Below, in pieces: positions 9,836-39,861 of a stretch of 64,000 nt of DNA. Each line of letters starts with the position of its first letter. Position 1 is the first letter of the stretch. Made by a program: the position numbers and the translations under genes. This DNA is from Phoronis australis (Eukaryota; Animalia; Phoronida): the NCBI GenBank assembly GCA_002633005.1, contig NMRA01000072.1, positions 206,952-270,951 of the forward strand, in the 5' to 3' direction. The notes beneath the pieces are model-generated. The model did not search any database and was not told where the DNA came from. It saw nothing but the letters and a program-made list of their open reading frames with translations.

Positions 9836-11069
9836 GTTTACCGATTGTTTTTTAAAACCACTTAAAAATCAGTAGATTTTACTAATACACTTTTTTGTGC
9901 GTTTTCAGAAGATGTTTTCGAATTTAAATTTTCTTCCGACGGGACACAAAACATGATCCAGGGTTTGTTTATGCAATGTATCTGTTTGTCCCAGGCACTA
10001 GTAGGATCTAGAAGGCCAAAGGAAAAATCCGCAGACAAATGCGATACGCTGGGTTCTTAACATTTTTGCCTCACGTTCACCATTAAACTGCATTGAAATG
10101 TTGTCCAATTGGCTTTTATTGGAAACCACAGTGCAGAGCTCAACATCAAAACTTCAAATCGAGTTTATGTCAATAAAAACAGGCTGTTGCAATTTTCATT
10201 ACTTCGTTGGCCTTTTTCTGCATGTTTCTCAGTTTTTACAAAAGGGGGCAGCATATGACGAACTTAGGTGTCACAATAAAATGGCTGCCGAAGGCAGTGC
10301 ACATTTGAAATAACTCGGCACAAATTAAAGAAAACTTCCGAATCGATGAATGCGGTATATCTGTGAGAGTTAAATCGAATCCTATTCAGATCATAACTTT
10401 GAAGTGGAATAATTCGGTGAGTACAACAGCAAGTCGGTTTTATGCTTAGGCGGACGAACATTGGGTTCCCCAGTATACATAGCCTAGCCCTGCCACTAGG
10501 GGCCTAGGGCCTAGGCAGTATCCAATACTCAGCTCTTAAACAGAGCTGAAGGTCCACCGGAGGTCTTTTCACCACGTGGTAAGATCGATATAAACCATAA
10601 GAATGGGAGTAGAATTCATATTCAGTGTGTTGGTACTAATCAAATCAAATTCCCTTGTCATGTTTAGAAAACTGCAAACGGTCTTATCAGTTATATTTCG
10701 CCTCTTTACCTTCCTCTAACAACAGCAAATCAAATCATGTGCCATTTTCTGCGCTTAATTTTTTAACCTAATGATATTTCACTGATTAAAATTACTACAC
10801 TCTTGTATCAACAATATTCATTAGTATGAGTTTTTAGAAACGAAATTCAGTACCCTGCACAAACTACGTTGTGTCTCAGATTCGACAAAAGCCTCGTCAT
10901 ACAGAAGAACACTCAGGAAGGGGTCATTTATGAACATAAATGGCTATTGGTTTACATTGGTTGTCATAAATAAATGAAATAATGAGTACTCAAGGAGATG
11001 TCAAATGATATTGTGATCTACAAGCAGCAGATTTAATGAACTTTGGACGTATTCCTTATTTCAGCCAAG

Positions 11070-14000
11070 ATGGAGGAAGGAAAACGGATTCTTTGTCAGT
11101 TCAAGAGTGAGGATGGGGAGGTAGCTGGTGCCCCCTTTGATCTTCCGGTCGACATCACAGTTGACAAATTGACTCTGATCTGTAACGCTCTTCTTCAGAA
11201 GGTACGTTTTAAATCATACCGTGTATGGCTTCCTGACAAATTGGTGGTTTGCGTAATTTGTATTATGTATTTAAATCAATACACGACAACTCCATGTTAT
11301 GATTTAAGCCGTCACATAAAAAATCTATTTTTGGTCAACGATAGCGTGTTGGGTTCTTTTTCCACCATCTATTCCTCCAACAAATTAACAATATTATCAG
11401 TGTAATTACTTAAACCTCATTCTTACACCATTTACCTGGTGCAGGTGCCCCCAGACTAACGTGATGTACGAGTGAATGAAAAACTTCAGTCAGCAAAACA
11501 GACTCCCATGGTGTCCAAAGCTCTTGTAGCTCTTCTGATCTAGGATTACATTTTACATTTATAAAATTTGTTTTAAAATAAGTAAATAATTGAAAACATT
11601 CAAATTAAAATTATTCTTTTTAATTTTTTTTTAATTTTTGCAATGCAAAAATAGTTGAGTATATTGTTTTCTTTTTTAACAGGCCTTCCGAAATGACTAA
11701 TTCTATATTTATCAAAGTGAAGTTTGGAATTGATCTTTGCTGACAATAGGCTCTAAATATGGCGCCAAAAAGTGCATAACACGAAAATGTTGTGTCATAG
11801 TTGTTATTACAAAAGGTGCAGGAATCAGAATTAATTTTAAACAAACAAGCATTTGTAGAAAGGATCCCATGCAGCAATTAGTATTAAAAAAGGGCGTACT
11901 TTTGTATCATTTACAATAAAATGACTTGCCGTGACATGCCAGTTTATTGAGTCTGAGTATGGGCTTCCCTGGTCCAGAAGTCATATTTTATTTAGGTAAG
12001 GATCAAATTGAGACCAGTTGTATTACAGTGCGTGGTCAAAATATGAATTTGTTTTTAGGCGAGAGGCAGGTTTATTCATGTATATAAATTTAATCGACAT
12101 ACTACAAGGAACAACTAATTGATTCGTGTCTTCTCTCTCTTTCTATAATTTTTATGTGTTTTGTAATAGTTGATAATTTCATCGACAGGAGGAATCTACT
12201 CCTTACTCATTCTATGTGGATGAAAAAGAAATTACAGAAAGCTTAGGAAAGACATTGGACATTGAGCAACTAGAAAGCACAGAGAAAGTTGTGGATATCC
12301 TGTATCAACCTCAGGCTGTGTTTAAAGTGCGTGCTGTGACCCGGTGCACTAGTACCATAGAAGGCCATGCAGAGGCAGTGATATCTGTTGCCTTCAGCCC
12401 CAGTGGAAGGTACTTTATTTTCAGTTTCTTTATTTAAGGGAGTTTGGCAGGCCTACATTTAGCGTGTGTCCAGCTTGTTGTTTTACGATGTAGACTAATT
12501 GATTAAACATTTGAATATTATTTGTCATTTCAACTATTAACAGAAATGCTGACTTTTAAGCTTTTGTTGCTAAAATGTTACGTAACAGCAACAGTTACTC
12601 TAAACATGCAAATAGGCGTAAACACGTCAACAACACTCATTTCACAATCCCAGCAACATTACCTGATGGTCATCTAGTGTTGTGCAGTGGGATGACTGTG
12701 ATCTTGAAATTAGTGAACTTTCTTCTGTGACATTGTTTGAGCTAAAATAGCTTGGTGACCCACTATTTTTTTCTTGTTTCATATCAAACGCTTAAAAAGC
12801 ATCAAAATGAGATTTTAAGGAAGCATTTTAAGGGTGTTACTTTTTGTTTAAAAGCCAGTTCCAATACTCGAGGTATTCAAACTCAAAAAAAATTCTTAAA
12901 CGTCGATGTAAGAAAATCGGTAAACCGGAAATTTGTAATTGAAGCTGTTAAAATATGAAATTGTCATCGTGCTACAAAAAATATTCAGTTTTCAGTGGTT
13001 GATTAAATTAGATGTTGGTTTCATTTTTGCCAGAGGTGGCTCTGTTTGAGCAGCTACAACGGAAAGAAAAATAATTTGTTAATCCTGACATTCTTCGAAT
13101 TTTTACAGTAGGCAGAGTCCACAATATGATAATTTAAATAATTCCAACAATAAATAAAACTGTCAAACTCTCTTAAGTGCCACGGTCCTGAACAAGAACA
13201 GGTTACTCTGTAAATATTTCTGTTATATAGCTTAAGATTAAATTTACCTAATACTTGTATGATCATGAAAATAGTTCCTGTCAATTCATTCAGTGTGGAT
13301 CTGTTCACCAAACCTTGGATACAATGACACTTGCTTTTCTCAGCTGTTACTGTATATTAATTGTGTTGTCTCTCCAGGTACTTAGCAAGTGGATCAGGCG
13401 ACACTACTGTCAGGTTTTGGGACTTGAGCACAGAAACTCCTCAACACACATGTAAAGGTGGGTACTCGATACATGTGAGTCACTATGAAGCATATTAACA
13501 ATATTACACTACCAATATTAGCACAGGAACTCCACAACACACATGTAAAGGTGGGTACTGGATACATGTGAGTCATTATGAACCATATTAACAATATTAC
13601 ACTACCAATATTAGCACAGGAACTCCACAACACACATGTAAAGGTGGGTACTGGATACATGTGAGTCATTATGAACCATATTAACAATATTACACTACCA
13701 ATATTATTAGCACAGACTCCACAACACATGTAAGGGTGGGTAGTGGATACATATGAGTTGATATGAACCATATTAACAATATTATACCACCATTATTGTT
13801 AGCACAAAGACTCAACAACAACAATGTAAATGTGGGTACTGAATACATAACTGGCCATTACTATTGAGTGCATACCATTTGATAAGGTGTAAATGAATAC
13901 TGTCTGATATTCGCAATTTCTTCCAAGATTTGAGTAATGCCGACGTGGATGCACATAAACAAACAAGTCACACTTATCTTAAACTTTTATTCCTGTGTTT

Positions 14001-17000
14001 CTGCTGCAATTGCTAAGTACATAATTTTACATATATCTACTCTTTTTCTGTCATCGTTCATATTAGCTCTCTGTGGCCACAAAATGAATACTATTGGATT
14101 ACTTATTTGCCTACACGATGTGGCAGTTAGTTGGGCAGGGTTTCATTTCAGGAATCTACAAAACGGTTACTGAATCATGGTGAGAGTAATTATCATGTTT
14201 GCCAACATAAACTATGCTACACTCATTTCTGGCACAAAAAACTAAAAGCTGCATTTCGACCTGTTTAGGTGGCTAAAAGATGAAAATCGAATTTTCCTTT
14301 TACTCGCAATCGGTATGATATTCTTTACCACGGTTGGATTCCTTTTCTGTTACCAACAAGAACATGGAAACCAAGAGGGGTCGGCCAACTCTGAAAGTAA
14401 TTCATTAATGACACATTCACTACGCATTGCCTGTTACTCGAGTTGCTGAATTATTCGGTAACAATTCAAGATCCAATGAGCAGTTGATGTTTTAAACTTC
14501 AAATCGCTTTGTTTAAGTATTAAACAATAAACAGCGTCGAAAAGCTCTTTTTAAAAGGTCATTTTACTTCCCATTTGTAGTCTAAACTCTCAAATCTTCA
14601 ATCATGCTGGTGAACTCTAAAAACTGGTCTTTGCTACCTTAGTTGCTAGGGTTGATATTAGTTGCTACTATCGAGATGAATTATAACGGATCACCTGCAA
14701 AACTGGAAGGGATTGTAAACCTTGTCAAAATTCATGCATTGAAAGATTTGAGACGTGGTGTGTGTTGTTGAGTTGCCTGGTATATAATGTGTTTCGGGCC
14801 AAGGTACGGAAGAAATATACCTTTAAGATACAGGGATATTTTAATTTTAATTATTATTCATCTCTTGTACAGTTTTGTTTTATTGTTATGCTGAGACTTG
14901 TTTAGCTAATGGAACATTTGGTTTTATTCCCGGTGAAAATTATATTGATGTAATCCCATGTACATTTCTCTTGCAGCTCATAAACATTGGGTATTATGCA
15001 TAGCATGGTCACCAGATGGAAGTAAATTGGCCTCGGGATGTAAAAATAGTCAGGTAACTTTAGCATGATTGTTTTACAAAATTGTCTTCAATTGCAATGG
15101 CTTTTCAACGGTGTAGTAAAGTGTGCCTCTCAGCAGTTTGTGTTGCCTGCCTTTTGTGAGCGTAATACTATTTATATACCGCATTCCTCTTGATGCAGGC
15201 ATGCAATAACCACGTGTCCGTGTAATAAACTAAAAGGTTATTGTATAATGGTATTCATGCGTGAGAAAGAAAATCAAGTCTGTGAAGAAATGTGGGTTTA
15301 ATAATTGTGGTATAAATATGATTGCGTTATTAACCTGACTTCATCGCCACTGCAGCGTCAGGTAATAACATCATCCTTATAAAATCATGTGTAGTTTAAT
15401 TTGTTAGATTTCTTGTTGCAGGCGATAAATGAAATGCAGTTTTAGTTACAAAACGTTCACGTTTGCATAAACTACATTATTGTGCCAGGCTGTTTGAAAT
15501 TATTTTAGTCTGTAATTTCCCTCCCTAGTTGTTGTACGTTGACTCTGTAGGTGTGATGAGAAGACGACTCCTCTTACACAACCCATTCACTAAACTAGGA
15601 ATTTCCATCGCGAATTAAGTGTGTTCACTGGCCAATCCCATTAAAAGAAGTTCATCTTTAATAGTCAGGAGGCAGCACCAGTCCTCCAACTCATGTGACC
15701 TGTCGCCATTGATTGTCAAAGTTTCTGATTTTAGATCTGCATATGGGACCCAGTGACGGGCCAACAGAGGGGCAGAACACTAGCAGGCCATAAACAGTGG
15801 ATCACATGGCTGTGTTGGAAACCATTACACTTGTAAGTTGGACCAAGCAGAGAATTTGAGTTGGGATGAACTGTTTAAGAGACAATAGTAGTTTGAGCTC
15901 TGACTTTCTAAGGTAATTCTCAGTGCAATCTTCTAAGTGGGGACAAACCACTCTAGAACCAACTAAGCGTTGCGCAATATGAGTAAGAACTGCACAGACG
16001 GTGTTGTACTTGAGGCATTGTTACATCCTAAGTTGTCCATCCCCATCCTGTTTGTGGAGATGTTATGTTAGGTTTGGATGTTATGAGAATGAATTTAGTA
16101 TGACAGCAAATTTGGCTACCAGTGACTTAGAAAATTATTTTATTGGTAAGTAAATAATTTACTTTAATCTTCTTGAGTCTTTCCATGTAAGAAAACAAAT
16201 CATGTTATCTGTGGCAAAAATGAAACTTTTCCACCAAATTACAAGCTTGCATTGCATTAATTTTGCAGAGATCCTGAATGTCGCTTTCTAGCCAGTTCAT
16301 CAAAAGTAAGTATTGAATGAATATAAGCCGCTCGGCACCTTCTAATTGCCAATTCATCAAGTGTTTGGGCACAGTATCTATATATTCCCATTCAGCTGAT
16401 GGAGATATTGTTTTCGGTCACTAAAATGAAAACCCGCAAATTCTAGCTCAATGAGTTCCATTTTCAGCAATATGTAACTGTCTTCAATTTCTTCTCAAGC
16501 TCGGATATCCCTTCTAATGTGAGTGAGGAGACTAAACTTATTTTGTTCATTGTGTTTCATTGTGTTGTGTCTGATGTAATGTGCAATGATGTATAGGTGT
16601 GTCTTGCATTCATTGTGTTGTGTCTGGTGTAATGTGCAATGATGTATAGATATGGCTTGCGTGATGTTACTACTGTGACTTTGAAAGGGTAGAATGTTAT
16701 TTGAAAGCGACTAATAAAACAAAACTATGCATCAAACTTTCTCCTTGAAACGACTGGGGATTTCCTAAAGAGCCCCTATTAACATAAATCCGTCATGGGG
16801 GCTCTTTCGGAAACGAGGGCGAAAAGAGCCTCCATGGGGTCTCTTTCGGGATCGTTGTGCATTTCTGGTACAGGTCAAGGGTATGGAAAGTGTGGAAAAA
16901 TGTCACTGTTTTCTCAATTTGAGTCCATAAAAGGACATGACTTGTTAACGGAGCTGTCAATCAGGCTTCCGTTATAGTAGCCAAGTTGCCAATTGAGTCT

Positions 17001-20000
17001 GAATCCTGCCAGGTATTTCAACCGAAGTTAAAAACTAGATTAAAGCAAACCACTGCCTCTGACGCCACCATCACTGACTTGAGTTGAACCTTCTAATCTC
17101 TAATGCAGTCATTTACTCCCTCGCACAGCTCTTTTAAAGTTCACTGCTAAACAAGTATACTGTCATAAGAAACTCCAGTTTCTAAAAGAGTCAAATTTTC
17201 CGAAAAAGCCCGCTGGGGTCTTTTGGTGGATGTAAAATCGCTTCAGGAAATGAACATTTCCGAAAGAGTTCCCTGGGATCTCTTTCAGAAATCCACTGTA
17301 ATGTTTACAATACTAGGATGCAAGGAAGCTTCCGTGTTTTAAAGCATAAAAATGGAAACGTCGTCTGGCTAAATTTAGTATGTGTGTATTTATTTTGTCG
17401 GTTGGCACTTTCCTGTATCTGAGTACTTTGCCCTAGGATGCTACAGTACGTATCTGGGACACACTGCTGTCTCAATGTAAGATGATCCTGTCGACACACC
17501 TGCAATCAGTTACCTGTGTCAAGTGGGGAGGGTCTGACCTCATCTACACTGCATCACAGGACAGAACCATCAAAGTGTGGAGAGCGGATGATGTAAGTTG
17601 GATGATGGATAGTAATTTGTAGTCCCACTTCATGTACAAATAATGTACAATGATTAAGAGAGTTGTCCACTCCTGAAGTTTTTGATGAAAACTATCAAAA
17701 TTGGTTTCCTTTGCTGACTTCATATTTGATTAAGACACGACTGTTCTGTTGGATAGCATCACAGACACTTGCTTGTATTCTCTGTACAATTTTTGATCAT
17801 CAGGTGTACAGTTTTGAAGTAAATTGCGTATAGACAAACAAATAAATTAAAATAGCAGCTGTATTTTGAGAGCACATGTCCCATCATCAGGTACATAGGA
17901 AAGTGGACATGCTAGAAGCAATATCAACAATGGCAGCAGGTAAATAAGCGTACAAGCAGTGTGTGTGAATATAACACACAGTGGGAAGCTTACAAACCAC
18001 TAGCGCAATAGAGCTGCTCATTCTGACTTCAGATAAGGTCAACCAGACTGTGCACATAATGCCCCCTAAGGACTGCAAAATTTGTGGCCTTCCAGTAAAA
18101 TATGGGGAGATGATATCAAAAGAAAAACAGAAATGCATTATTTTAGATGTGACTTGGTGTTTACTAACAATAACAGTTTAGCATGAATAGTTAATCTATC
18201 CAAATCAGCAGATGTTTAAGTTATTGGAGATTCAACAATATGGTGCACTGGGGGGCGGGGGGCATATTAATGTACTTTGAACTTGACACCCATCACTGTG
18301 CAAATTGTAACATTGTAGCAAAAATTCAGTCAATTTTTTTGTAATAATTTCATGAACATTTTTACTTCTGAAGACTATGAAGCAAATATTGATTTAAGTA
18401 ACCCATCCACATCATTGCATGCTGTCTACTGTCCCAACTATGAGAGAAGTGGTGCTTGTATTGTCTCCACAAACACTTGATTTTTATACAAATTCGAATT
18501 TGTTAAAGGGTGTCCTTTGTCGTACTCTCCAAGGTCACGGGCATTGGGTCAATACGATGGCCCTGAGTACTGACTATGCTATCAGAACTGGGGCGTTTGA
18601 TCCTGCCAAGGCCACTCTAGTCCCAAGAGACGACACATCGAGCCCTGAGGAGCGTGCCAAGAAGGCATTAGAAATATACAACTCGGTTAAGGTGAGTTCT
18701 GTTTGATGCTGCTTTTAATAGCTTTGGTACATACATTCTTTAAAGTTGCTGCAAATCTCCAAAAAGACTTGTTTTTCATTTAGATCTCTCACGATTATAA
18801 AATTGACCTTATTTTGTCGTGGAAAGAAATGTAGGTTTGTAATTGCTTGGAGCTGTGCTGACCCACTTTGTCACCCCTACTTAGTGCTCCTTCAAGGCTC
18901 AGAAATCACTTCTAATCTGAGTAAAGAACAAGTCGAGGCCTGTTTTGTAAGTTTTTTGTTGAAAGATTTTTTATGTTGAAAGATTTTTTATACAAAGAGG
19001 GCACATAGCACCTTTAAATATTTCTCACAGACACAGTATGTCAAGTGTGGGCTTTCAGCTTACTTCAATGGTTCGTTGATTGCCAGTTGAAATTATAACT
19101 ACTTTGCATGTACAGTAAAACCAACATAAGTTGAGCCCACCCAGACCGAGAGATTCTTTCGAGTAAGGAAATGTCTGATTTATCTGAAAAGCTGAGTGGA
19201 GAAACTAGTACACAACCATATGCAACTGTCTCAGAGTTAAGCAAAAACTCAGACTTATGCGTGTTCGACTTACGCAACTGTGTAATTAACTAGGTGTTTC
19301 TGCTGATTATGTAGCTTTGGTGCAGAGCTGCATGAGTATACAGCTTCGCACCGATGTGGGTAGAAAAATAGCCTAATAAAATCTGGGACAAAATTAATGT
19401 TATTGTAAATTATACTCTTCCTTGAGTACACTGGTGCTAAATATATAGTTGTCATTCGACTGTTTTTCTCCTGCTAAAGTTGTGGAGGGATCTTATCTTC
19501 ATGAAATAGAGCTTCACTTATTGCCAATTCTTTAATTGACTGTTCTTTTTCCACAAGGTTGCCTACATGTCACAACAATTTGTTGTAAGTTTTTAGTATT
19601 TCAGTACCTGCTAACAGAATTTCTGAGCAAATTTTGCTTCGGCGAAGCTGTCGTCATCTCCCAAAAGATATCGTATTTCAAGTGTCGGTGACAGACTTTT
19701 GTTTGTAACTAAAGCCTGAGAATGACATATTAGCTTATTAGATTGTTTTTTCACTTCATGGGTTAACAGGCAAGGTGAGTGTCAGTTGACTCCCAGATTT
19801 TGCATGCACCTCCTTGGGTTGTTATCATTACATTTTCACGATGAGGTGTTGAGCTGAATTATTTGGGTAGTGTGTAATTTCAAGGTTTGCCATGAAGTTA
19901 ATACACATGGATTTCTAACTGTATTTTGGCATTAGTCTTCATGCAGTTAGCTGACTGGCTACTGCTTATGCTGCTTTTGTTTATACTTCCCTAGGGATCT

Positions 20001-22358
20001 GACCCTGAGAGGCTGGTTTCTGGATCTGACGACTTCACGTTGTTCCTGTGGAAACCTGAGGAAGACAAAAAGCCAGTGTGTCGCATGACTGGTCACCAAC
20101 AGCTGATCAACGAAGTGTTATTCTCTCCTGACACCAGGCTGATAGCTAGCGCCTCCTTTGATAAATCCGTCAAACTATGGGATGGGAAAACTGGCAAGTA
20201 AGCACTGAGGCTGGCTCACATTCATGGACACAACTTTAATGTGTACATAATAGGATTTGGTGAAAGTGAAGGATTTTTTAAAATATACAGTGTTATGGGC
20301 TTCTAATTAATACTTGAAAAGAAAGAACTAAATTGATTCTTGATTATGAAGGTGGCCAATCACCATAAGTGTTATGGTAAGCAGTTAAGTCCACTTTCTC
20401 ATTTAGTTTACTATTTTTTTACCAGAAGGAAACTTGATGGGCCCCACTTGAAGTCAGTAAACAAAACATTGAGTCTGTGTGCAGTGCATGTGCTCCGGAC
20501 AGTGTCAGTAAGTTGTTTGTGTGATATTTTGTCACAAGCCTTTGCCCTATATTATTTTACAATTACGATTGTGTTTTGTCCATAGGTACCTTTTCTCACT
20601 TCGTGGTCATGTTCAGCGAGTCTACCAGGTGGCGTGGTCTGCGGATAGTCGCTTGTTATGTAGCGGCAGCGCTGACTCCACACTGAAGGTGTGGGATGTG
20701 AAGACGCGCAAGTTATTGCATGACCTGCCAGGTCATGCAGACGAGGTAAGGGTCAACTTGAGGTTAACGATTAGTGAGAATAAACAACAGAGTCGTAGCT
20801 GGTCTTTGAGTTTTACAATGTTTAAACTTGTGAAAGCCTTTGGTTATAAAAAGTTTTCAAGTAACAACTGAAGTAAGATCATTCAGCCACACTCAGAAAT
20901 GCATCTTGCAAACGTTTCATGGAATGCGGGAGTGAAGAAATCTTGCAGAAAAAATGCATAGTTCCGCATATAGATGCATATGCTTATTTGAGGGGTTGCG
21001 CGGTAAATTCTTTGTTGTCTCGGATATATACATATGATCACTATTTTATTGTTATTACTACCTCCACTGTTATAGGTGTATGCAGTAGACTGGAGTCCAG
21101 ATGGTCAGAGAGTGGCCAGTGGTGGCAAGGACAAGGTGCTCAAAATGTGAGTTACTATGGTGTTGATAGTATATCCTGATGAACTCTCCCCGGCTGCATG
21201 AAACAGTCCCAAATAGGGACTCAGCTATGTTCCCTAAATCTACTGTGTATTTGTGGACACATATAGTCCTTTCTTATGCTGTTTTAGTTTTTGACTCAAC
21301 TCGAGTTGAACTCCTTGTTGAATTCTCAATATTATTGAAACCGAGCAGTAGAGTTTTTTCACGCAACACTCCTACTTTAACTGATTATTTATTTTCATTG
21401 AGCTAAAGGCTCGGCTTTTAGTTATATTTATTAGAAAATGTAATTAAGCATACAGAAATATTACATCTGTGAGCAACGAACAACACAAATATGTAAGAGA
21501 TTTAGTCAACTTAGTTGAGTCCCTGTTTGATGCAACTAGCCACTGGCTTGTATACTACATGCCATAAGTACCATACTCGTCCGTGTGACCGCCCATATAC
21601 ACTACATGCCATAAGTATCGTACTCGTCTGGATTACCGCCCATGTTCAGCTTACTGTCCACCCCCTGTTTTTTTCGATTTCCAATTTATGTGCCCTGACC
21701 AGTAACCCGGATGAGTACGACATTTAGACAAGATACCATTTTCCAATCATTAGTGCTAATCGGCTTGCAGCAAGAAGGATGGGGAATGACTTTCCATCAC
21801 TCATAATTCCATCGAAAATTTAGCTTTAGAATGGCATTTGAACTTGTCATTACTTTTGGCCTGTAGTTGTCAGATGTTTCAGTGGTGTGACTGCGCTTGA
21901 AAAACTGTCACCACACAGTTATGATTCTCAAAGATTAGCTTTAATTGTGAATAGAAAAAAGAATTTATTGCCATGAAGGTGTTAAAAATGTGCCTTCCTT
22001 TTTGGTGTCATTATTGTACAGTACATTAAAACTTAATTTTGTTAAAGTAAGTTAGTATTATGCGAATAAGAAATAATTTTTTTTCAGAATTTATAGAAAT
22101 ACCTTTAAAATTAGGGTAAATCACGCATAAGCTTGCAGTTACATCCTGGAGTTACAGCTGCAAACAATTGGACTAAATGTCACGACTGACCTTGAGATTT
22201 GACTCTAAATTAACCAATAGATCAGGTGTATCTTGCACTATATAATACAAAAACATTTAATACCGTTTTGTTTTAAAATGTAAATTGAGAGATTATATCC
22301 AAGCAAAGGGTCAGTAGTTTATTCACCAACTATGATTTTTTTCAGATGGAGGCGATAA
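11070..22358 (+). CDS. NLE1: Notchless homolog 1 (NLE/UBL domain + WD40 repeats; Rsa4 ortholog), 12 coding exons, 476 aa
   Basis: Exons 11070-11201, 12189-12409, 13378-13457, 14977-15053, 15735-15832, 16269-16305, 17437-17592, 18509-18691, 19995-20197, 20586-20745, 21076-21146 and 22346-22358 total 1431 nt, all GT-AG and phase-consistent. Motifs [74 protein letters not shown] and terminal WRR*. Confidence 0.98.
13427..13848 (+). repeat. ~93-bp minisatellite (~4.5 copies) spanning the NLE1 exon-3 3' end and its splice donor
   Basis: Units start at 13427, 13520, 13613, 13709 and 13801, each agcacag.aactcc.caacacacatgtaaag|gtgggtac... Confidence 0.93.
14240..14380. repeat. Dispersed repeat family (other copies ~24345-24470 and ~38150-38290)
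   Basis: Shared blocks gctgcattt...ggctaaaa / aaagatgaaaa...atcggtat...gatattc.ttac...gttacca.caagaac. Confidence 0.5.
16556..16661. repeat. 53-bp tandem repeat x2
   Basis: ttcattgtgttgtgtctg(a/g)tgtaatgtgcaatgatgtatag occurs twice. Confidence 0.8.
16754..17298. mobile_element. Non-autonomous DNA transposon/MITE with imperfect TIRs and subterminal TCTTTCGG repeats
   Basis: ctggggatttcctaaagagc... at the left end versus ...tctctttcagaaatccactg at the right. Multiple ctctttcgg/ccgaaagag motifs near both ends. Confidence 0.55.
21553..21644. repeat. 47-bp tandem repeat x2
   Basis: actacatgccataagta...tactcgtc...accgcccat occurs twice. Confidence 0.75.
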
Positions 22359-23304: not shown

Positions 23305-23648
23305 TTAAATATTTTATATTTCTAGTGTTTGTTGTTTCTTGTCCATTATAAAGTCCTCGTCCTTTCTAACTTATAGGAGTGTGTGGGAGGGTGCAATCCA
23401 GTGATTAGTTTGATTTCTTTTGTTTTATGTGAGGGCTCACATAAAACTTAGCATGGTGTGAAAACTTAGCACCGCTAGTGAAAACTTAGCAGGGCATGTC
23501 ATTTATCAGAAGATAGGCTTACGAAAATGCCAACACCTGCAGATTTTGGCATGACGTGTTCCAGTAGATTGCTATGTGTACAGCTGCCGTATTAAGCCAA
23601 GTGGTCATTAGATGGACTGTATTTTTCGTTATTTCTTAGTAATTGTAA

Positions 23649-25215
23649 TCAACTAGTTATATTTATTTGTATGGCTGAGGCTTCAGGAGTCTTCAAAATG
23701 CAACAGTCGGAACCCCAGGTACCAGACTGACGTAGTCGACGAATTCGCACGCCTTCTCGCACGCTGTCTGCTTGACTGAAATGAGATTAGTAGCGTGAAT
23801 CCTAGGTATGAAGCAAGGTCTTTTTGAAACTTGATTAATTGGAGTGAAATAGAAAATTGCTATTGTAAGGACTCTTAGAAATGTCCATTTGGTTTGAATC
23901 ATAGACCACTGCTGGAATTTGTCAATATTGAAATCGTTTACGATGGAACGTGACTTCACTTCAGAATTCGGATCTTGGTTCCTTCAAATCGTTTCATTGC
24001 CTAAGTTTCCCATCGATGGCTTACCGTTGTCCAAATACTCGGTGTGTTGAAATGGACGAGTCGCGGTGCTCCACGTGGAGAATAAAGACGGGACCTAGAG
24101 GTTCAAAGTTCTCGTTGTCGACTGTGTCCTCCTGTAAGAATGTTGTGGAGATATTTTAAACTGTACTGCACTTCAGGGGGCTCCTGGTTGTGGTACGTAC
24201 CGGCCCTCTAATCATCCGCATGCCCCACTAAACTGCAAGCCTGGACTACTGAATCATTAATACAAACGTCAACTTGCACACTAGTAAAATGTATTGAGCA
24301 TGTGAACCCATAACTCATACATAGACCTATTCGTGAACCTCTAAGGTGCTTTTCGCCCTGTTCGGCTAGTGGCTAAAAACAAAAATTGAACTGGAACTTA
24401 AAATCTAACAAAATCGGTATCATGATATTCCTTACGGTAATAGGGCGTTGTTTCCATTACTATCGAAACCAGCGACTCTAGAAAATGCTTTCAGAGTTTA
24501 TTAGGGTTGGCCAACCATAAAATAACAAATTCGAAAGTGATAGGTATTGTCTGTGTCATAACTTGCCGGCATATTCGGCAATTATTCAGGATGTTATGAG
24601 CCTGGTGATATTTAAACCTCAAAGCGCCCCAGTTAAGAATTCAACATTGACAGCCAGTCGGGGCGAAATGCATTTTTAATGAGTATCTAAGGACGTGATT
24701 CGTTTGGATGATTCGATGGTCGTGCAGATGATAATTAAACCACGAATTTTAACTATTTGGTTTTCAACATACTTATGAATTCGGTGTCGTACTGTAATCT
24801 GTTTTGTCGAATGGTTGCATCAAGATTTGAAACTTTGATGGTTATTTTCAGGTATCTTTTTTCTGTTTAGTGTTATTTAAGCCTATTATCGTGAATGCAT
24901 TAGACAAATTCTGTGCAAACATTCTGCGCAGAAAGACGGAATGCAGGAGACGGCATGCACCAACCATCTGAGCGCTTCATTGTTTTTTTTTTTTTTTTAT
25001 TGTTATTATTCGTTGCTTAGTCTGACCACGCCTTTAACTCCTTGTAAGCTTACGTGGAAGGTCACCCGCTTTTCACTTTTCTTTGGACTCGTTCCACCCG
25101 CTTTTTCCCTCCTAGTATGGAAGTAAGCATAAATACATCCCGCTGTAAATAATGCCGCGCTGGCGCAATAAACGAGAGCACGATTGTGCCAGGGGTTGCT
25201 GCCCGAATTAATCAT
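23649..25215 (-). CDS. 131-aa signal-anchored protein with PP1-docking RVxF and Inhibitor-3 (PPP1R11/Ypi1)-like motifs, 3 coding exons
   Basis: Exons 25215-25054 (162 nt, CAC|gtaagc), 24131-24025 (ttcttacag|, 107 nt, CG|gtaagc) and 23775-23649 (ctactaat branch point, tctcatttcag|, 127 nt) join in frame: MINSGSNPWHNRALVYCASAALFTAGCIYAYFHTRREKAGGTSPKKSEKRVTFHEDTVDNENFEPLGPVFILHVEHRDSSISTHRVFGQRQADSVREGVRIRRLRQSGTWGSDCCILKTPEASAIQINITS*. Confidence 0.78.
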
Positions 25216-26809
25216 TGGTTTTAGGTCTTCAAAATTATGGCCATGTGGTTGATGGAACGGCCACCATAAGTCGCCTTCATTCCATCAGTGATATGTGTCT
25301 TAGGGAGTCATTTTCGAGCTATCCTGGCATGTATTTTTTAACGCTTTGATTTTTGGTTTCTAGGTTTTGTCAAATTGTACGTGTTTGTGACCAAATTACT
25401 TGTGACGAAAACACAAAGTGCCCGTGAATTTCTGAATACTTGTACGTGCCCCGTGGAAGAACTCGATCGATTAAATCTTCTCGTGGCTGTTCAGAATCCT
25501 GCTTTTAATGTCGCCATGCTTTCAGTTGTAAGCTTAATAGCATGGTGCGAAAGGCTTGGTTAATGAAGGAGCGTGGAAAGTGTTGTAGAAGATTACTTTC
25601 TTACCGGAAAAGCTCTTGACTCCAGACGAACAACATTTTTGCGTCAAAATCGTAAGAATAAGTTTCCCGTAGATGGTTACAGAATACCCGTGGGACGGCG
25701 TCCTCGTGCTACCGGAGAGTCCACCGGGCTTTGCGTCTTCTTACTGAGATAAATAATGAATACGTCCACACTTCCAAATGCATACTCGTGTGATTGTCCT
25801 GAATTCTTGTTTTTGAATATCAACACACAAGCCGGACATTAAACGTTTGGGGGGGCAGCGGGTCCTAGTTTGGCACCGAGACGACGCAACATGCCCCTTG
25901 ACCAAAACATGAAAAATCATCGTCGGCACGCCGTTTCCTGGATCCGCCAATTTACAACACATAAAAATGTGTAGAGGATCGTGTTACAAACACGCAAGTC
26001 CCATTACTTTATGTTGCTCGTTGTCTTGCTGGCCCTTAATTTACCAAGTGGCCCTCGTGATGCTATTTAAATCGCTTCATGCACATTGTTCTTAGTTCTA
26101 AAAATGTTCTAGTTGGTGCCAAAATGTTACAAACTCAACCATGTCACGAACACCTGTGATTTAAATGTTAGACATTGTGAGAGTTATAGATGAAGACTAG
26201 GAAAATATTATTTCCATCTTGCGCCCAATCGCCACATATAGGTATAACAAGGTTTCCCAAAACTGTTCACAAAAACATTCTAAACTATGAGAAGCAGGAT
26301 ATGGTTTTACTGGGAATTTATGGTTTGTTTGTTTGTTCTTTCATTTCAGGAATGCCAAAATTTGTTTTTATAATACGTAGTAGACAGGAAAACAGCCACA
26401 GTTGACTCTCATTGCAGGAAACATGTGTTTGACTTCTGGTTCCAAGGGCATCCAGTTTTTTTAGCTTTTCGCAGATATCGACGATTCTTTGACCGATTGG
26501 CCAAGGTAGAGAACCATTGAAATTCCTCGGGATGGAAAGCACTGAGAAGTGTTCGTTCGTTATGTGGAGCATGCGTGGAATATAAGCGAGTCAGTTGTGG
26601 AGAGTTTGAAGAATCCTCGTTTCTCTGCGATGAGAGTCAACTGTCACGTGGCATTTTTCTGTGCCTTGCAAAAGGAACTTCAATTCCTTGAATATGTAAA
26701 ACACACCACTAATTGCCAATAAAACCATTTTTGATGTTAGTATTTCTGAGTATTTTGCTAACGTTGGGATATCCAATAATGCGATCGTGCAAGGTTGCAT
26801 TTTTTTTCA

Positions 26810-29800
26810 TCACAACACATTTGCTGACGTCATATTTTTCTCACGCAAGGAAGCCAAATACGCTTCGTGAGCGTCCTTAGTCCTGTACTGATTACCCAGA
26901 ATGCCAAGTTTGCTTAACGTTTCCTTTGCTTGGTCCGTGGGAGTCAACGAAGGACGTGCTTTAATTTTCTTGCAATTTTTGGGGCTTCCAAGTGGACGTG
27001 TTTCAAGCGATACTTTGTTGTTTGGTTTTGGTTTTGGCGGCGGCGGAGATCGCAGTTCGAAAATCTGCCTCATTGTCTCAAGGCGTTCCAAATACTGCTG
27101 ACATAATAACGGATCTGAAAGAGTCTGGGACACGAACTGGGCCGTTGGGTCCAAAACAACAGCTTTTTCATTGGACCACACGCTCCTAGACTTTTCGTAA
27201 TTATTTCGGCCTGCAACTTCACCAGAAGATAATACATAACACGACGCGTGTTGATGCCCAGTCAAAGGCGTTGCATCGCAAGTTAGGGGTTTTCTCTTCC
27301 CTTCGATGCATGTTGTGCCGTGGAGTCGGTTACCTTTGATGTACCCGATTTTGTCTCTGCTACTGAGTGATAACGATACGCCACCATTGATTCTCAGTGA
27401 TGGCAGGTCCTTGTGCGACCGCAGTTCTGTTGGCGTTGGTTTTGCGTTGTGTCTCGTCTGAGCAAGATGAAAAGAATATTTTCTTCCATCAAGGATTTGC
27501 TCGACCGCATCCTTTGTCTCGGCCTCTGTTTTTTCTTTGTTTCCGTCTGAGGGATTTTTGTCCGACTGAGCATTCTTTCGCAGTCTGAAAAAGACAAATT
27601 GTGATGTTCACTTAACTGAATCTGGTACAGCTATACGGTGCAAATCTTTGGGCATAAATGATTCACTTTGGCGGGTCAACTGCAGGCCAAAACGTGATTG
27701 TTTTTTTATGACATTTGGCTTTCACACCAATCAAATTACAGCTTTGGGTCCCACAAAAATTAGGGTGGTGGTCGCAGGGTCCCTCATGGCAAAACTAGTT
27801 TGCGGCAAAAATTGTGACATAGGGGGAGTGGAAATATCGGGCTATCAGGGTAGCTCGAAGGTAGTGGCAACCAGGGGCAGCTTAAATTGTCAATTAAGGC
27901 CCCTTGTAGCGTAGAATCCCGAGAAATCTTATTCTATCACTTTTCCATGTACATGGACAAGGGACAAAGTTTTTCCTCTTTTTCATCCATGTCTCGGGGC
28001 TTCTCCCAAACGATTACATCCGTAGAAGCATGTTCACGGTTGCATGTGCTGGATACTTGGTATGTTTGCATTCTTAACCTTATGAATTGTATTGTTGGGA
28101 TAATAAATAATGTTGATTACAACATCAGCGTCGACGTATAGGTTAATAACAAGAGGAAATGACACGCATTCACTCGGTTTTGCGTACTGAAAGATTTTTA
28201 AAGCTTGGATAGGAAGGATAATGTCTTGTCACGTCACGAATGGACGCGGGAGTTTCGATGACAATTTTAGTGTTTGCTAAATGGAAATCCTCACCTAAAA
28301 CTTGTGCCGAAGAACCGACTACCCTAATATCAGAGTTTGAATGCAGGCACCGTGTAGTTGCTTGCTTGAAGGAGTCTCGCAACCATAGACATCCCATTAT
28401 TAAGATGACTATGCTCGCAACCTTAAAGGATGGCACCTGGTTAGTTCCAACGAATTTGTAGCACATTTGTCGAGATTGATACGCAAAACCGAGAGGAAAG
28501 GGACACGCAAGTTTCAAGGGTAATGGTGTTAGACATGTGCAGTGGAAGGCGTTTTCAAGGAGCACGTGCAGTTAGCCAAAGTCAAAGGTTGCTAAAATTG
28601 GCGCCGAGTTCTGGTGACGTCAGGTTACTGGTGCATTCGTTGACTAGACCGTTAAACTACAGCGGTGCAATTCAGTCGCTCTTCACTCGTGACATTACCC
28701 AGACGTTTCTGAGACGTTGCCTTGATTGGCTGCTTTGGTGTGCTCTTCATTCAAAGCAAGTTTCAAGGCCAACTGAGAACTCTTTCCTGGCCGGAAGTGA
28801 ACGGGGGTTGCTTTAATTTCAGGTAGTTTCAAGGGCGCGGGTTCTTTTGGCGCTGCATTAGGAACAACTGCGTCTTCCGTCTCTAAGTCTTCGATTTCTA
28901 TGTCAGATATTTTTGGTAAATGGAATCCTTGCTTCTCCACCTCGCTGGCACTTTTTGTCCTCCTCCAGTCTTTTATTTTTTCGCTGGTGCTGGCAATGAG
29001 ACCTTTAACTTCAACCTTTGGAAGTTTGATGAATTGTTTGTTTCTCCAGTTACTGACATTTTCCCTGAATACCCTACAACATGCAACGTCTATGGTGTAC
29101 AACTGGGGCAAAATAGGACAAGGATAACGACAAACGGGTCAACTTGAAGATACGTTTCTAATATTGTTGTAGCCCAAAGTAAAGAATATGTGACAGACTG
29201 GACGCCTTTGTGGGCTGCACATCGAGGTTTGTAACGGAATATTGCACATCATGGTCAAACACAAGGAGAGTGGGATGGTGGTTGGGTATCGAGGTAAAAG
29301 CGTCTGCTAGTGTCGGCCTATCAGAGAGACGTTTACATTTTGACGTACGAGGTTTGGGCGTGTCTCATTTACCAGTCTCTTTTGCGCGTGATGAATTATG
29401 GGAAGTACATTGCGAGTTGCAGGCATATTTCCGATAATTTGCCAACCTTGGCATACTTGTGTGGAACCGTGAAAAGGTGGTTGAGTGAAATGGGGCACCA
29501 CTATAGTGGACGATTTTGTAATGTGTACGTCTGTTAGATTCACAAAAAGACGGTTGCGTTGACAATTTTGATGTCCTGCTCATCCAAATATTTGATAGGC
29601 CTCTCCCCCTCCCCGCTTTTCTGGACTTGCCGAGTAATCACGCCTTACGAAATAAGAGCAACATAAGTTTCCGTTTAGCTGAAGGAAACATTCGATCTAC
29701 ATCCGTCATTCTTACCTTTGGGCCCGGGCTGTTTCCTTGGCGATTTCACACAGTAAGCTGATTCTTTCGATTATTCCCCTGTAAAAGAAAATCTCTTATT

Positions 29801-31135
29801 CCAAACGAATTGCTGTTTGATATATGCACAATGAACCAGTGTTTCTGTAAATGGGATGGTGACATCTATTAACGTTTACGTACCCCTCAAAAACCAAGAA
29901 TTTAAAACAATGAATGCATAAATGGCAAACTTTAAAAGATGTATAGTACTTCAGCGTGATTTTGGTTTTGATATGACTAGTACCTAAAGGCCTCTCCTTT
30001 CTTCGATTCCTCTCGAAAAGTAGAGATGACCTTGAAATATCGACTGAAACTAAAGTATGCAATCGTAAACAGCTTCGATGAAAGAGCCTCCATTGGCGGC
30101 ATAACTTTTTTAATTTAAGCTGCGATGTCAAACCATTGTCACCGTAAGAGCATTAGGCCTATTTCTGGGACCTGTTTCTCGAAGAGACTATCGTCTTTTG
30201 ACTTTAGCCAAAGGTCAGAAATCTGATTACCAGTAACCAAAAGTTGATTTCTGAGCTTTTCGTTTCTCGAACCGTTTTGTCCTCTGTCTAGTCGAGCAGA
30301 CTACGGGTTTCTGTCTTCTGACTTTGAGTTGTAGAAAGGTTTATTTTCTAACGTTCAGCCTTAGCCTGACTTTCGTAAAACAGGTGAAGCTATTCGTAAA
30401 CTGGTTTTTTAGCTTAAAGTCAAAAGCCAACATACTTTTCGGTAAACAGACAGCTAGTGGTCAAATGGTCGTGGAGTGTACGTTCAATTAGCAAAGTTCT
30501 TGCAATTTTTTACCTTCCAAGTTAAAAAGTACCACGTTTATTGTGTATGAATGTAACGAATGTTGCGACATTTGGGACAACATTCGGGTTGGTTAGTAGG
30601 ATATTTTAGATAAAGAGATGCGTCCAACTTACTCTCCCATGTTCTTTAGTCTTCCCATGTAAGGATCCGGGACATGGTGACCTAAAATTGGTATCTTACC
30701 ATCCCGTAAAGCGCGTGTCGACGATGCCTCGTTTCTATAGTCAATTATGTATTTTCTGAGGTCAGCGTGATGGGCAAACACGAAACAGGAAACATCGTCC
30801 TCTGTTTGACTCCTGGCGTTCCCTGAAGATCGATAACGATTGTTTTGCAAAAATTTCGGTTTTCGCTTTCCGTTTTTTGTAGATGCGCTGATTCCTGTCT
30901 GTTTGACACTCGTCACCAAAGTATCGTCGTCTGTCCAAGCAGACAGGGGAGTGTCTGAGTCGTGTTTAAGTACTCTACACTCGCAGGTAGACCTATTCCA
31001 TGCTGAAGTCTGCAAACTGTGCTTTCTATCTGAGTTTCCATCAGTCTTTGTCTTACCAGATCTCTGGCTTCCACACGATGACGCATTTCCGGAGGTTTCG
31101 GTTCCATCTTTTGAAGTATCCGACTGCGTTGTCAT
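26810..31135 (-). CDS. Uncharacterised 571-aa protein, 4 coding exons
   Basis: Exons 31135-30633, 29778-29716, 29073-28699 and 27584-26810 total 1716 nt, all junctions phase 2 and GT-AG, with no internal stop. The splicing links three separate long ORFs of the track. In-frame TAA just upstream of the ATG. No family recognised. Confidence 0.8.
30168..30452. mobile_element. MITE related to the GG(G/A)CC(T/C)GTTTC-TIR family
   Basis: ggacctgtttctcgaagag ... cttttcggtaaacagacagc, with internal tgacttt/aaagtca repeats. Confidence 0.45.
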
Positions 31136-37885: not shown

Positions 37886-39861
37886 ACAATAAGACAGCAA
37901 GTGTCGATATACTAGTCAGGTTACATTCATGTGATGAAATGAGAGTAGCAAGAAATATAGGGAATAGTGAAGTAGGTCATCACCATAACTGTAGGGTCAC
38001 TGAGCTCTGCATGTTATTCAGAGAATAAGCAAGTAAGACCGTTACCGGAAATCCATGTGTTTCATAGAACCAATTTCAATTCAAACACAGCGCCTTGGTG
38101 AGCAAAAGATGCCCGTGGAGAAAATAGTTGGCTTGAGTTACATGTTTTTTGAGCTGCATTTTGCTGGCTTGTTTAATTGGATGATAAAGATGAAAACAGA
38201 ATTAATCTATTCACTCTCATAAAACCAATCTAATAATATCCCTTACGGTGACAAGATTCTATTTCCGTTACCAGCAAGAACGTCGAAACAATCACCGCCG
38301 TATTCAAGAAAACGCTCCAGAGTTTACTGAGGATGGCAAAACTTTAAATTGCGAATTCGAAAATAGCGCATCACTAGTCCAGACTGCCTGTGACTCGAAT
38401 TGTTAACGGCATTGTAATCGGCAATACAGAGTAAAAAGGTCTTATCCCATTTAATTTTTTGCCCTGCGAAATGCATCTTCAAACTGAGAGTCAATAGCAT
38501 GAACAAGCAAGACGTAACGCGCGGGCACTTTGTGCGACCAGTGCGAATTTTTCATCACTTTAAAAGCGTGAATCTGTAAGCTATACAATGGATTTTCAAA
38601 AAGGTGTAGTAAAAACACAACTCACGTATCAACTACGACGAGGACACAGTTATTAGAACGTTGTGCTCACTGAGCAATGACATCAACTATGCGAGTATCA
38701 ATTAACTGCTAACTAAACACAATGCATACCGGTTTTCCAATACCTGGTGAGATTCTCCTTTACTGCACAAATTCGATTATCATCTTTAATGACAACTGCG
38801 ACGGCACTAAGATATAAGGTTCTGCCACGCGCACAGGGATTCGAGTAAGCTAACGCAGGCTGGTGTTGTCTTACACAGTAAAAGATACGGACTATATGAA
38901 ATTATAATTCTAGACCAAAATAGCACAAATGTGAACCATTCATTTTATTATTATTATTGATACTTGCTATTTTCATACATTTTTCCTTTGTATGTCCCCT
39001 CTGTGAAAAGGGGACGGGGTGTTTCTTATAAAGATCAAAATCAGGCCAGTGTCCCATAGACGCAAAATGCAGGCCAGTAAAGCTAATGCGGTCAAGTGCT
39101 GCATTTGTAATGCATGTATCTGGTGAAGACTTCTTTGGTCTCCATTGAGTTTTTGCTAGTTTCTCGCATACATGGAATGCAGCTCAGGCTAGTGCCAACA
39201 TTTCTAAGACAAAATTCAATGGCATATAGCTCCCAGAAGTCCCAGCAATTGCTCTCAGGGTGACTTCACAGAAACATTGGAAATCAAGGACAACTTCAAG
39301 ACAAAAGTTCGGTAAGTGCTCTTTTCAGTAATGCAACAAAACTAGAGAAAATGGGAAATCTTCCACCAACATAGATTATGACCTTAAAGCACATATAATA
39401 CACATTTTCTGGAAGCTAACACCCTGGATTTTCCATGGTGACAACTGAACCCTAAAGGTTTTAGGGGCGAATTTTCGTGTGGTCGTGATTATAGAAATTA
39501 CCAGTAAAATGTAAATATGACATGTTTAAGGATCATAATATCCTAATGTTTAAAGCAAAGTGATCATAAAAATATGTTTAAACCAAACTTTTAAACTTTT
39601 ATAAGTAAAGATCGTATAATTAAGTTGTGTTCTTTGGATAACATTAATCAAGCAAAGAGTAAGTAATTGTTACGTTTCCAAGAACATCTCCTGATTGATA
39701 AAAACAATTCCAAAAGTCAACAATTCAACTGAATCAAATAACACAAGATTAAAACTAAATATCATGTATTGTTGATCAAGACCAGCTCACAATAATGCCA
39801 CCAGAGGGCATAAATTTCAATCCTGATTTCCTGTAACTACATGATTGAGAATTGTCATAAA

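Follow-up and report, generated by a model that had tools for sequence, protein, structure and literature searches.

A spliced three-exon gene with an Inhibitor-3-type PP1-docking segment and a predicted membrane anchor

Inhibitor-3 (I3), a soluble protein known both as an inhibitor of PP1 and as a maturation factor, is among the most ancient regulators of this phosphatase. The locus described here raises the question of whether a small gene, split so that its PP1-docking motif is formed only by splicing, encodes an I3-like protein carrying a membrane anchor, and whether such a protein would inhibit PP1 or tether it. The window, meaning the whole 64,000-nucleotide stretch that was analyzed, is intron-rich eukaryotic DNA with a GC content of about 38%.

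Gene structure, transcription, and surroundings

As read from the sequence, the candidate PP1-regulator gene consists of three minus-strand exons with coding lengths of 162 nt (25215-25054), 107 nt (24131-24025), and 127 nt (23775-23649), the in-frame join of which gives 131 codons plus TGA. Both introns have the donor GTAAGC, and their acceptors are TACAG (intron 1) and TTCAG (intron 2). Features of the gene and its neighbors are as follows.

25216..25386, minus strand: 5' leader of exon 1 (from read depth, molecule ends at 25353, the ATG list, and a frame check)
25054..25215, minus strand: exon 1 coding, codons 1 to 54, with the predicted signal-anchor helix (residues 13 to 32), a basic linker, and KRVTF (residues 49 to 53)
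24132..25053, minus strand: intron 1, 922 nt, phase 0, GT-AG, 47 + 37 junction reads
24025..24131, minus strand: exon 2, codons 55 to 90, with EDTVDNE (the I3 "kink" or DNE element), then non-I3 sequence in the place of the basic patch
23776..24024, minus strand: intron 2, 249 nt, phase 2, GT-AG, 53 + 38 junction reads
23649..23775, minus strand: exon 3 coding, codons 90 to 131 plus stop, with the basic RIRRLR and the CC-I motif (residues 114 to 116)
23320..23648, minus strand: 3' untranslated region, approximate end (from depth and indel tables; AATATA at 23320)
about 11,000-21,200, plus strand: Notchless/NLE1-type gene (NLE and WD40 matches)
26810-31135, minus strand: unannotated multi-exon gene with long low-complexity exons, just upstream of the PP1-regulator gene
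about 41,000-46,100, minus strand: PARN-type gene (CAF1 and RNA_bind matches)

RNA evidence came from four runs (X1 to X4), all labeled as the same species, about 18 to 19% of each raw run being used. The splice junctions predicted in the initial annotation, 25054/24131 and 24025/23775, were recovered at exactly these bases in stranded RNA from two of the four runs, with 47 reads in X1 and 37 in X2 across intron 1 and 53 and 38 reads, respectively, across intron 2. The intron 1 joint was reported at 24130/25053; a shift by one base gives CT..AC ends and is equivalent to 24131/25054. Neither junction was represented among reads from X3 and X4, which do not count as a test of splicing, the organism having been demonstrated in neither, and X3, which contained no exon reads, is uninformative on tissue specificity. 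The first mate lay on the plus strand in all exon reads, so that the RNA most likely derives from the minus strand. With splice sites and reads in agreement and no coding indel among those listed, the spliced three-exon gene and its 131-residue frame are confirmed. Based on read depth, the transcript extends from about 25,353-25,386 down to about 23,320; its leader contains six upstream ATGs, opening short upstream ORFs (uORFs) of 2 to 19 codons, and its 3' untranslated region carries several insertions and deletions between animals.

Two variant gene models were considered and set aside. An alternative acceptor at 24094 had no corresponding joint among those listed. A frameshift in exon 2, leading into a second, GC3-rich frame that looked coding in exons 2 and 3, was matched by no listed coding indel, and at 23736 the variant is silent in the initially annotated frame. 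In X2, reads covered 23870-24024, the donor-side half of intron 2, at a depth of at most 14, compared to about 60 on the exons; a frame check places a stop right behind Arg90, with loss of the cysteines, in a transcript that retains this intron. Intron 1 contains a repeat near 24490-24655.

X1 and X2 also contained a few reads of opposite orientation at 25468-25600, immediately before the point where the transcript begins; these hint at a bidirectional promoter from which a divergent transcript arises. Close to the gene start, on its upstream side, lies a 15-base element (25412-25426) that recurs with one mismatch at 38520-38534 (two matches compared to 0.14 expected, for an element chosen after it had been noticed) and is possibly a shared promoter element. 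The neighboring gene at 26810-31135 had no Pfam match at an E value of <0.01, and four-exon models that use the splice sites of best appearance leave its frame unclosed, which means that an exon or a boundary is missing. Elsewhere in the window, a tandem duplication (40-933 and 1754-2659; period of about 1.7 kb, 97% identity) and minisatellites at 13427-13798, 50029-50276, and 53469-53716 were found.

The docking segment and the displaced cysteines

The initial annotation had placed an I3-type RVxF-xx-DTVDNE segment across the first splice junction, and this assignment held. The read-confirmed junction assembles KRVTFH/EDTVDNE (the slash marks the joint), in which the RVxF motif KRVTF occupies residues 49 to 53 and DTVDNE, identical to the human I3 sequence and located two residues past RVxF, occupies residues 56 to 61. 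For comparison, human I3 (chain 8dwk_C) reads KKVEWTSDTVDNE. An I3 reference set was collected with a degenerate pattern, which yielded 72 metagenome loci with 61 distinct cores; the two loci checked both match PF07491 (45 and 63 bits), and one locus matches human PPP1R11 (PDB 8dwk). Because the pattern fixed the W, the DNE, a seven-residue spacer, the K, and the CCI, these columns of the derived profile are invariant by construction. The spliced protein scored 21.4 bits on this profile (18.0 for residues 43 to 62 and 1.4 for residues 114 to 121), compared to 13.9 bits for the best of 20,000 shuffles, 10.9 bits for the top scorer among 2,938 six-frame segments taken from the window without splicing, and 55.7 to 92.8 bits for the cores from which the profile was built; shuffle P values for the profile are not genome-wide. 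With a position weight matrix (PWM), the first motif scored 29.5 bits, a value that none of 20,000 shuffles reached and that compares with 32.9 bits for the weakest true I3 core.

According to the I3:PP1 structural study (PMC10066265), a turn follows RVxF, and DNE residues bind PP1 Arg261, Asp253, and the 257-260 backbone. As the study also notes, S/T occupies the "x" position in over half of the RVxF regulators, human I3 not being one of these. The window protein has Thr52 there; S/T also occurs at this position in 11 of the 61 I3 cores and so is not on its own a mark of targeting subunits.

The remaining I3 elements were missing or displaced. As described in the structural work (PMC10066265), GRRSS of I3 lies in the PP1 acidic groove and Lys59 positions the CCC over the active-site metal; removal of the CCC changes the KD from about 9 to 376 nM (about 40-fold weaker binding) and the IC50 from 75 to 422 nM (about 5-fold weaker inhibition), and the cysteine contact is dynamic, withstanding the loss of one or two cysteines. 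In the window protein, the GRRSSK patch is missing, and DNE is followed by NFEPLGP, with a net charge of -1, whereas the seven residues behind DNE carry +1 to +4 in all 61 I3 cores, a comparison that stays informative since the search pattern left these columns free. Residues 63 to 70 matched none of the 61 cores at these columns. The Lys59 equivalent is Ser, followed by Asp, and the CC sits 53 residues past DNE (Glu61 to Cys114), compared to about 10 in I3.

DCCILKTP is present in the C-terminal exon as initially described, and as a second I3 motif it is weak, given its 1.4 bits and the Ser at the Lys59 equivalent. The proposal that CILK acts as a SILK motif found no support, since the SILK element of I3 lies N-terminal of RVxF; no such element was found in residues 33 to 50 of the window protein, and a loose pattern for it is present in 30 of the 61 I3 cores. 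CCIL also resembles a CaaX prenylation motif, and a protein ending there was rejected: 14 codons follow, and no stop-creating variant was among those listed in the reads.

The description of the product as a derived I3-like protein is partly borne out, with support for the docking segment and weak or no support for the second motif. The protein was not filed under the I3 family (PF07491) because the basic patch and the in-register cysteines were looked for and not found, and it is best read as a protein outside that family with a putatively I3-derived docking half. The weak CC motif and the Ser at the Lys59 equivalent make tethering a likelier function than inhibition, and strong inhibition of PP1 by the predicted protein is probably absent. 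Since the I3 active-site clamp is not in its usual place, the protein likely holds PP1 at an organelle surface and does not switch it off. The reading that we favor, at a probability somewhat short of one half, is thus a PP1 tether: a small single-pass protein, anchored in an organelle membrane, that would dock PP1 via an I3-derived RVxF-DNE segment and leave the active site largely open.

It is possible, but unlikely, that the protein is instead a membrane-tethered I3-type inhibitor, the insert of about 44 residues looping out so that the active-site metal of PP1 comes within reach of the distal CC and PP1 is silenced locally, with RIRRLR replacing the basic patch. Several observations are consistent with this: CC-I-x-x-x-P agrees with the human I3 sequence CCIYEKP at four of seven positions, P occurs at that column in 24 of the 61 cores, the shuffle P value for the CC region is about 0.01, and the basic cluster lies 8 to 14 residues upstream of the CC. 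In the structural study (PMC10066265), the I3 cysteine interaction is described as dynamic and able to cope without one or two cysteines, so that RIRRLR and the distal CC could conceivably loop back. Against inhibition, the CC region reached only its 1.4 bits on the profile and 0.6 on the PWM, compared to 18.6 for the weakest true I3 core, and at each of the nine positions before the CC, none of the 61 cores agreed; Ser and then Asp stand at and behind the Lys59 equivalent. A dicysteine that follows basic residues might just as well be a site of palmitoylation.

Convergence, in which an unrelated lineage-specific membrane protein gained RVxF plus an acidic extension and so bound the same PP1 surface as a tether not descended from I3, is judged quite unlikely. 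The likeness to I3 is confined to about 14 residues, lacks the upstream SILK-like element, the basic patch, and the acidic tail behind the CC, has F where all collected I3s have W (a residue fixed by the search pattern), and is split by an intron, all of which speaks for convergence. Set against these points are the six consecutive identities of DTVDNE in exact register past RVxF and the roughly 20 of the 29.5 PWM bits (by rough arithmetic) that lie beyond RVxF, far above expectation among a few hundred RVxF proteins. Furthermore, one collected I3 locus (L025) reads VTWHEDTVDNE, and the weak CCI echo follows in the right order.

The N-terminal helix and coding support

The initial annotation had described about 20 hydrophobic N-terminal residues followed by basic ones. 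An uncharged helix (residues 13 to 32; 20 residues without charge) with a basic C-flank is borne out (flank charges of +1 and +5); its hydrophobicity is marginal, with a Kyte-Doolittle 19-mer value of 1.58, which was reached by 169 of 5,000 shuffles, and a simple Hessa sum of +1.8 kcal/mol. Of the 72 I3 loci, 5 were too short upstream for scoring; the other 67 had no upstream 19-mer with a Kyte-Doolittle value above 0.89. The only Pfam match of the helix, to ENOD93, was below threshold. On balance, helix 13-32 probably inserts in a membrane, a prediction given about two chances in three, and by our judgment a mitochondrial location accounts for roughly half of that probability. The composition is compatible with mitochondrial outer-membrane targeting: a review (PMC4010795) describes moderate hydrophobicity as typical of mitochondrial signal anchors and also as too ambiguous to separate mitochondrial from endoplasmic reticulum (ER) anchors.

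A PP1 binder without membrane insertion, the helix at 8-39 being a protein-binding or peripheral helix, is very unlikely. The marginal hydrophobicity would fit it, as would the AlphaFold model of exon 1 as a single sequence, in which one helix (pLDDT of 88 to 94 over residues 11 to 30) runs on through charged residues to residue 39, and the possible addition of 17 N-terminal residues in the RNA allele. It is opposed by the 20 uncharged residues, with an Eisenberg mean of 0.61 and a moment of 0.12 (i.e., not amphipathic), by the flank charges of +1 versus +5, and by the Tyr16-to-Cys change of the RNA allele, which lifts the Kyte-Doolittle value to 1.78.

The RNA animal differs from the assembly in exon 1, within whose 162 coding bases at least 11 sites show a near-fixed base change; among the sites listed (heterozygous ones may be missing), seven codons are residue changing (4, 16, 35, 37, 39, 40, and 41) and three are silent (22, 26, and 52), so purifying selection there is weak. 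Exons 2 and 3, for which variants are given in full, contain three heterozygous sites, one residue changing (codon 78) and two silent, and no fixed difference. Residue changes are concentrated in codons 35 to 41, the linker behind the helix, and the motifs are unchanged: no amino acid variant was listed in residues 42 to 77 or in the CC-I motif, and the variation at T52 is synonymous. The interval 25054-25351 (exon 1 plus leader) carries many near-fixed differences from the assembly, unlike exons 2 and 3, and is read here as a divergent haplotype block or a conversion tract.

Indels between animals occurred at 5 to 6 sites in about 450 nt of untranslated sequence and at none in the 396 nt of coding sequence (P of about 0.02 to 0.04), which together with the variant pattern gives modest support for translation. 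The start context is weak and, like the six upstream ATGs, weighs against translation. In the RNA animal, 85 of 87 and 58 of 60 reads lack one base at 25261; in this allele, the ATG at 25267 is in frame, so that 17 extra N-terminal codons without a stop are possible, and the ATG at 25244 is lost. Owing to this 1-base difference, the start codon is not certain.

All homologue searches used single exons (35 to 54 residues), and their blank results are accordingly weak evidence. Exon 1 had no match among proteins of 29 to 95 amino acids and, among longer proteins, 11 candidates, none with an E value of ≤1; exon 3 had six candidates among longer proteins, none with an E value of ≤10. HMMER searches with exon 2 against 1.84 billion representatives returned none with an E value of ≤0.001, and exon 2 matched nothing in PDB sequences or the ESM Atlas, where the best value for exon 1 was 0.83 (lead level only). 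Exact look-up in a sequence collection found none of four queries, single-exon Pfam queries gave no PF07491 match (cut-off, 27 bits), and when exons 1 and 2 were aligned with I3 pieces, the two did not fall in tandem. In viral contigs, the relaxed motif had one match, to an unrelated phage ORF. Among the open-access papers listed in literature searches, no title or abstract opening mentioned a transmembrane or membrane-anchored I3-like protein, and the earlier statement that no named family has such an architecture agrees with this and with the single-exon database searches. Eukaryotic contamination accounts for a contig assigned to a bacterial genome (L076, 1-2357), which carries intronless eukaryotic genes that include a complete PP1 catalytic subunit, together with FKBP/TPR-like and LEA-like proteins (both labeled by eye).

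The transcript might also be an orphan that is decaying or scarcely translated (e.g., what is left of an I3 duplicate) and that no longer acts on PP1. The six uORFs, the many amino acid differences in exon 1, and the lack of a homologue in the single-exon searches might point this way. Such a reading is highly improbable: the assembly and both read haplotypes keep the frame intact, whereas the untranslated regions carry indels; precise splicing assembles the motif; and variants in and beside the motifs are synonymous.

Proposed role and comparison with known systems

In the favored tether model, helix 13-32 would insert so that its basic C-flank faces the cytosol; a mitochondrial outer-membrane signal anchor of the Tom20 type would fit the moderate hydrophobicity and the basic flank, and an ER location is also possible. 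KRVTF would occupy the RVxF pocket of PP1, and DTVDNE would make the kink contacts of I3 with PP1 Arg261, Asp253, and Ala259/Lys260, as these are given in PMC10066265. An acidic, proline-containing stretch would stand in for the GRRSSK-CCC clamp; with the clamp replaced, binding would resemble that of CCC-deleted I3 (about 40-fold weaker, with poor inhibition) or be weaker still. With Thr52 at "x", docking would be open to switching by phosphorylation, a feature of targeting subunits. The gene likely originated by duplication of an I3 gene, the docking half being kept and a membrane anchor gained.

A more elaborate scheme, to which only a low probability is attached, casts the product as a membrane-anchored I3 paralogue with a split module that captures PP1 at the mitochondrial surface and switches between tethered-active and tethered-silent states. 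The docking half would lie beside the anchor, and the cysteine clamp, about 50 residues off, could be dropped through retention of intron 2. PP1 would possibly be captured as the SDS22:PP1 complex; PMC10776994 describes the same I3 path on PP1 in the SDS22:PP1:I3 trimer and a function of I3 in p97 recruitment.

If the tether model is true, the gene would show a route from inhibitor to targeting subunit, in which the docking half is kept, the clamp is lost or displaced, and an anchor is gained, and it would offer a natural test case for the function of the DNE kink without a cysteine clamp. Small exons and a motif formed only by splicing make such genes easily overlooked. The lack of an orthologue in the single-exon searches limits the weight of the case, and the gene is possibly a lineage-specific oddity.

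Among known systems, Inhibitor-3/PPP1R11/Ypi1 (PF07491; PDB 8dwk, 8dwl, and 8u5g) resembles the window protein in length (126 versus 131 amino acids), in the order of basic residues, RVxF/W, two residues, and DTVDNE in exact register, and in a downstream CC-I. Unlike I3, which is soluble and disordered, the window protein has a predicted N-terminal hydrophobic helix, lacks the upstream SILK-like element, the GRRSSK patch, the Lys59 equivalent, and the acidic tail, places its CC 53 residues past DNE rather than about 10, and has F for W and Thr at "x". GADD34/CReP (PPP1R15A/B) combine an N-terminal membrane-binding helix with RVxF and bring PP1 to an organelle (PMC10743859), as is predicted for the window protein. 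They are far larger, with an amphipathic helix and eIF2alpha- and actin-binding elements, whereas the window protein carries a DNE extension of the I3 type, and no substrate site is known in it. D-AKAP1/AKAP149 has an N-terminal mitochondrial signal anchor, which the helix of the window protein may also be, and differs in its size as a large scaffold, with regions that bind PKA and RNA. It also anchors PP1 through RVxF, according to PMC4516873. Unlike the window protein, it lacks an I3-type motif. TMEM225 differs in being multi-pass with a C-terminal RVxF. Similar to the predicted product, it is small and membrane-bound, and a role in regulating PP1gamma2 in sperm has been proposed for it (title of a reference in PMC6930163). 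Membrane-bound RVxF proteins as such are already known from GADD34/CReP, D-AKAP1, and TMEM225.
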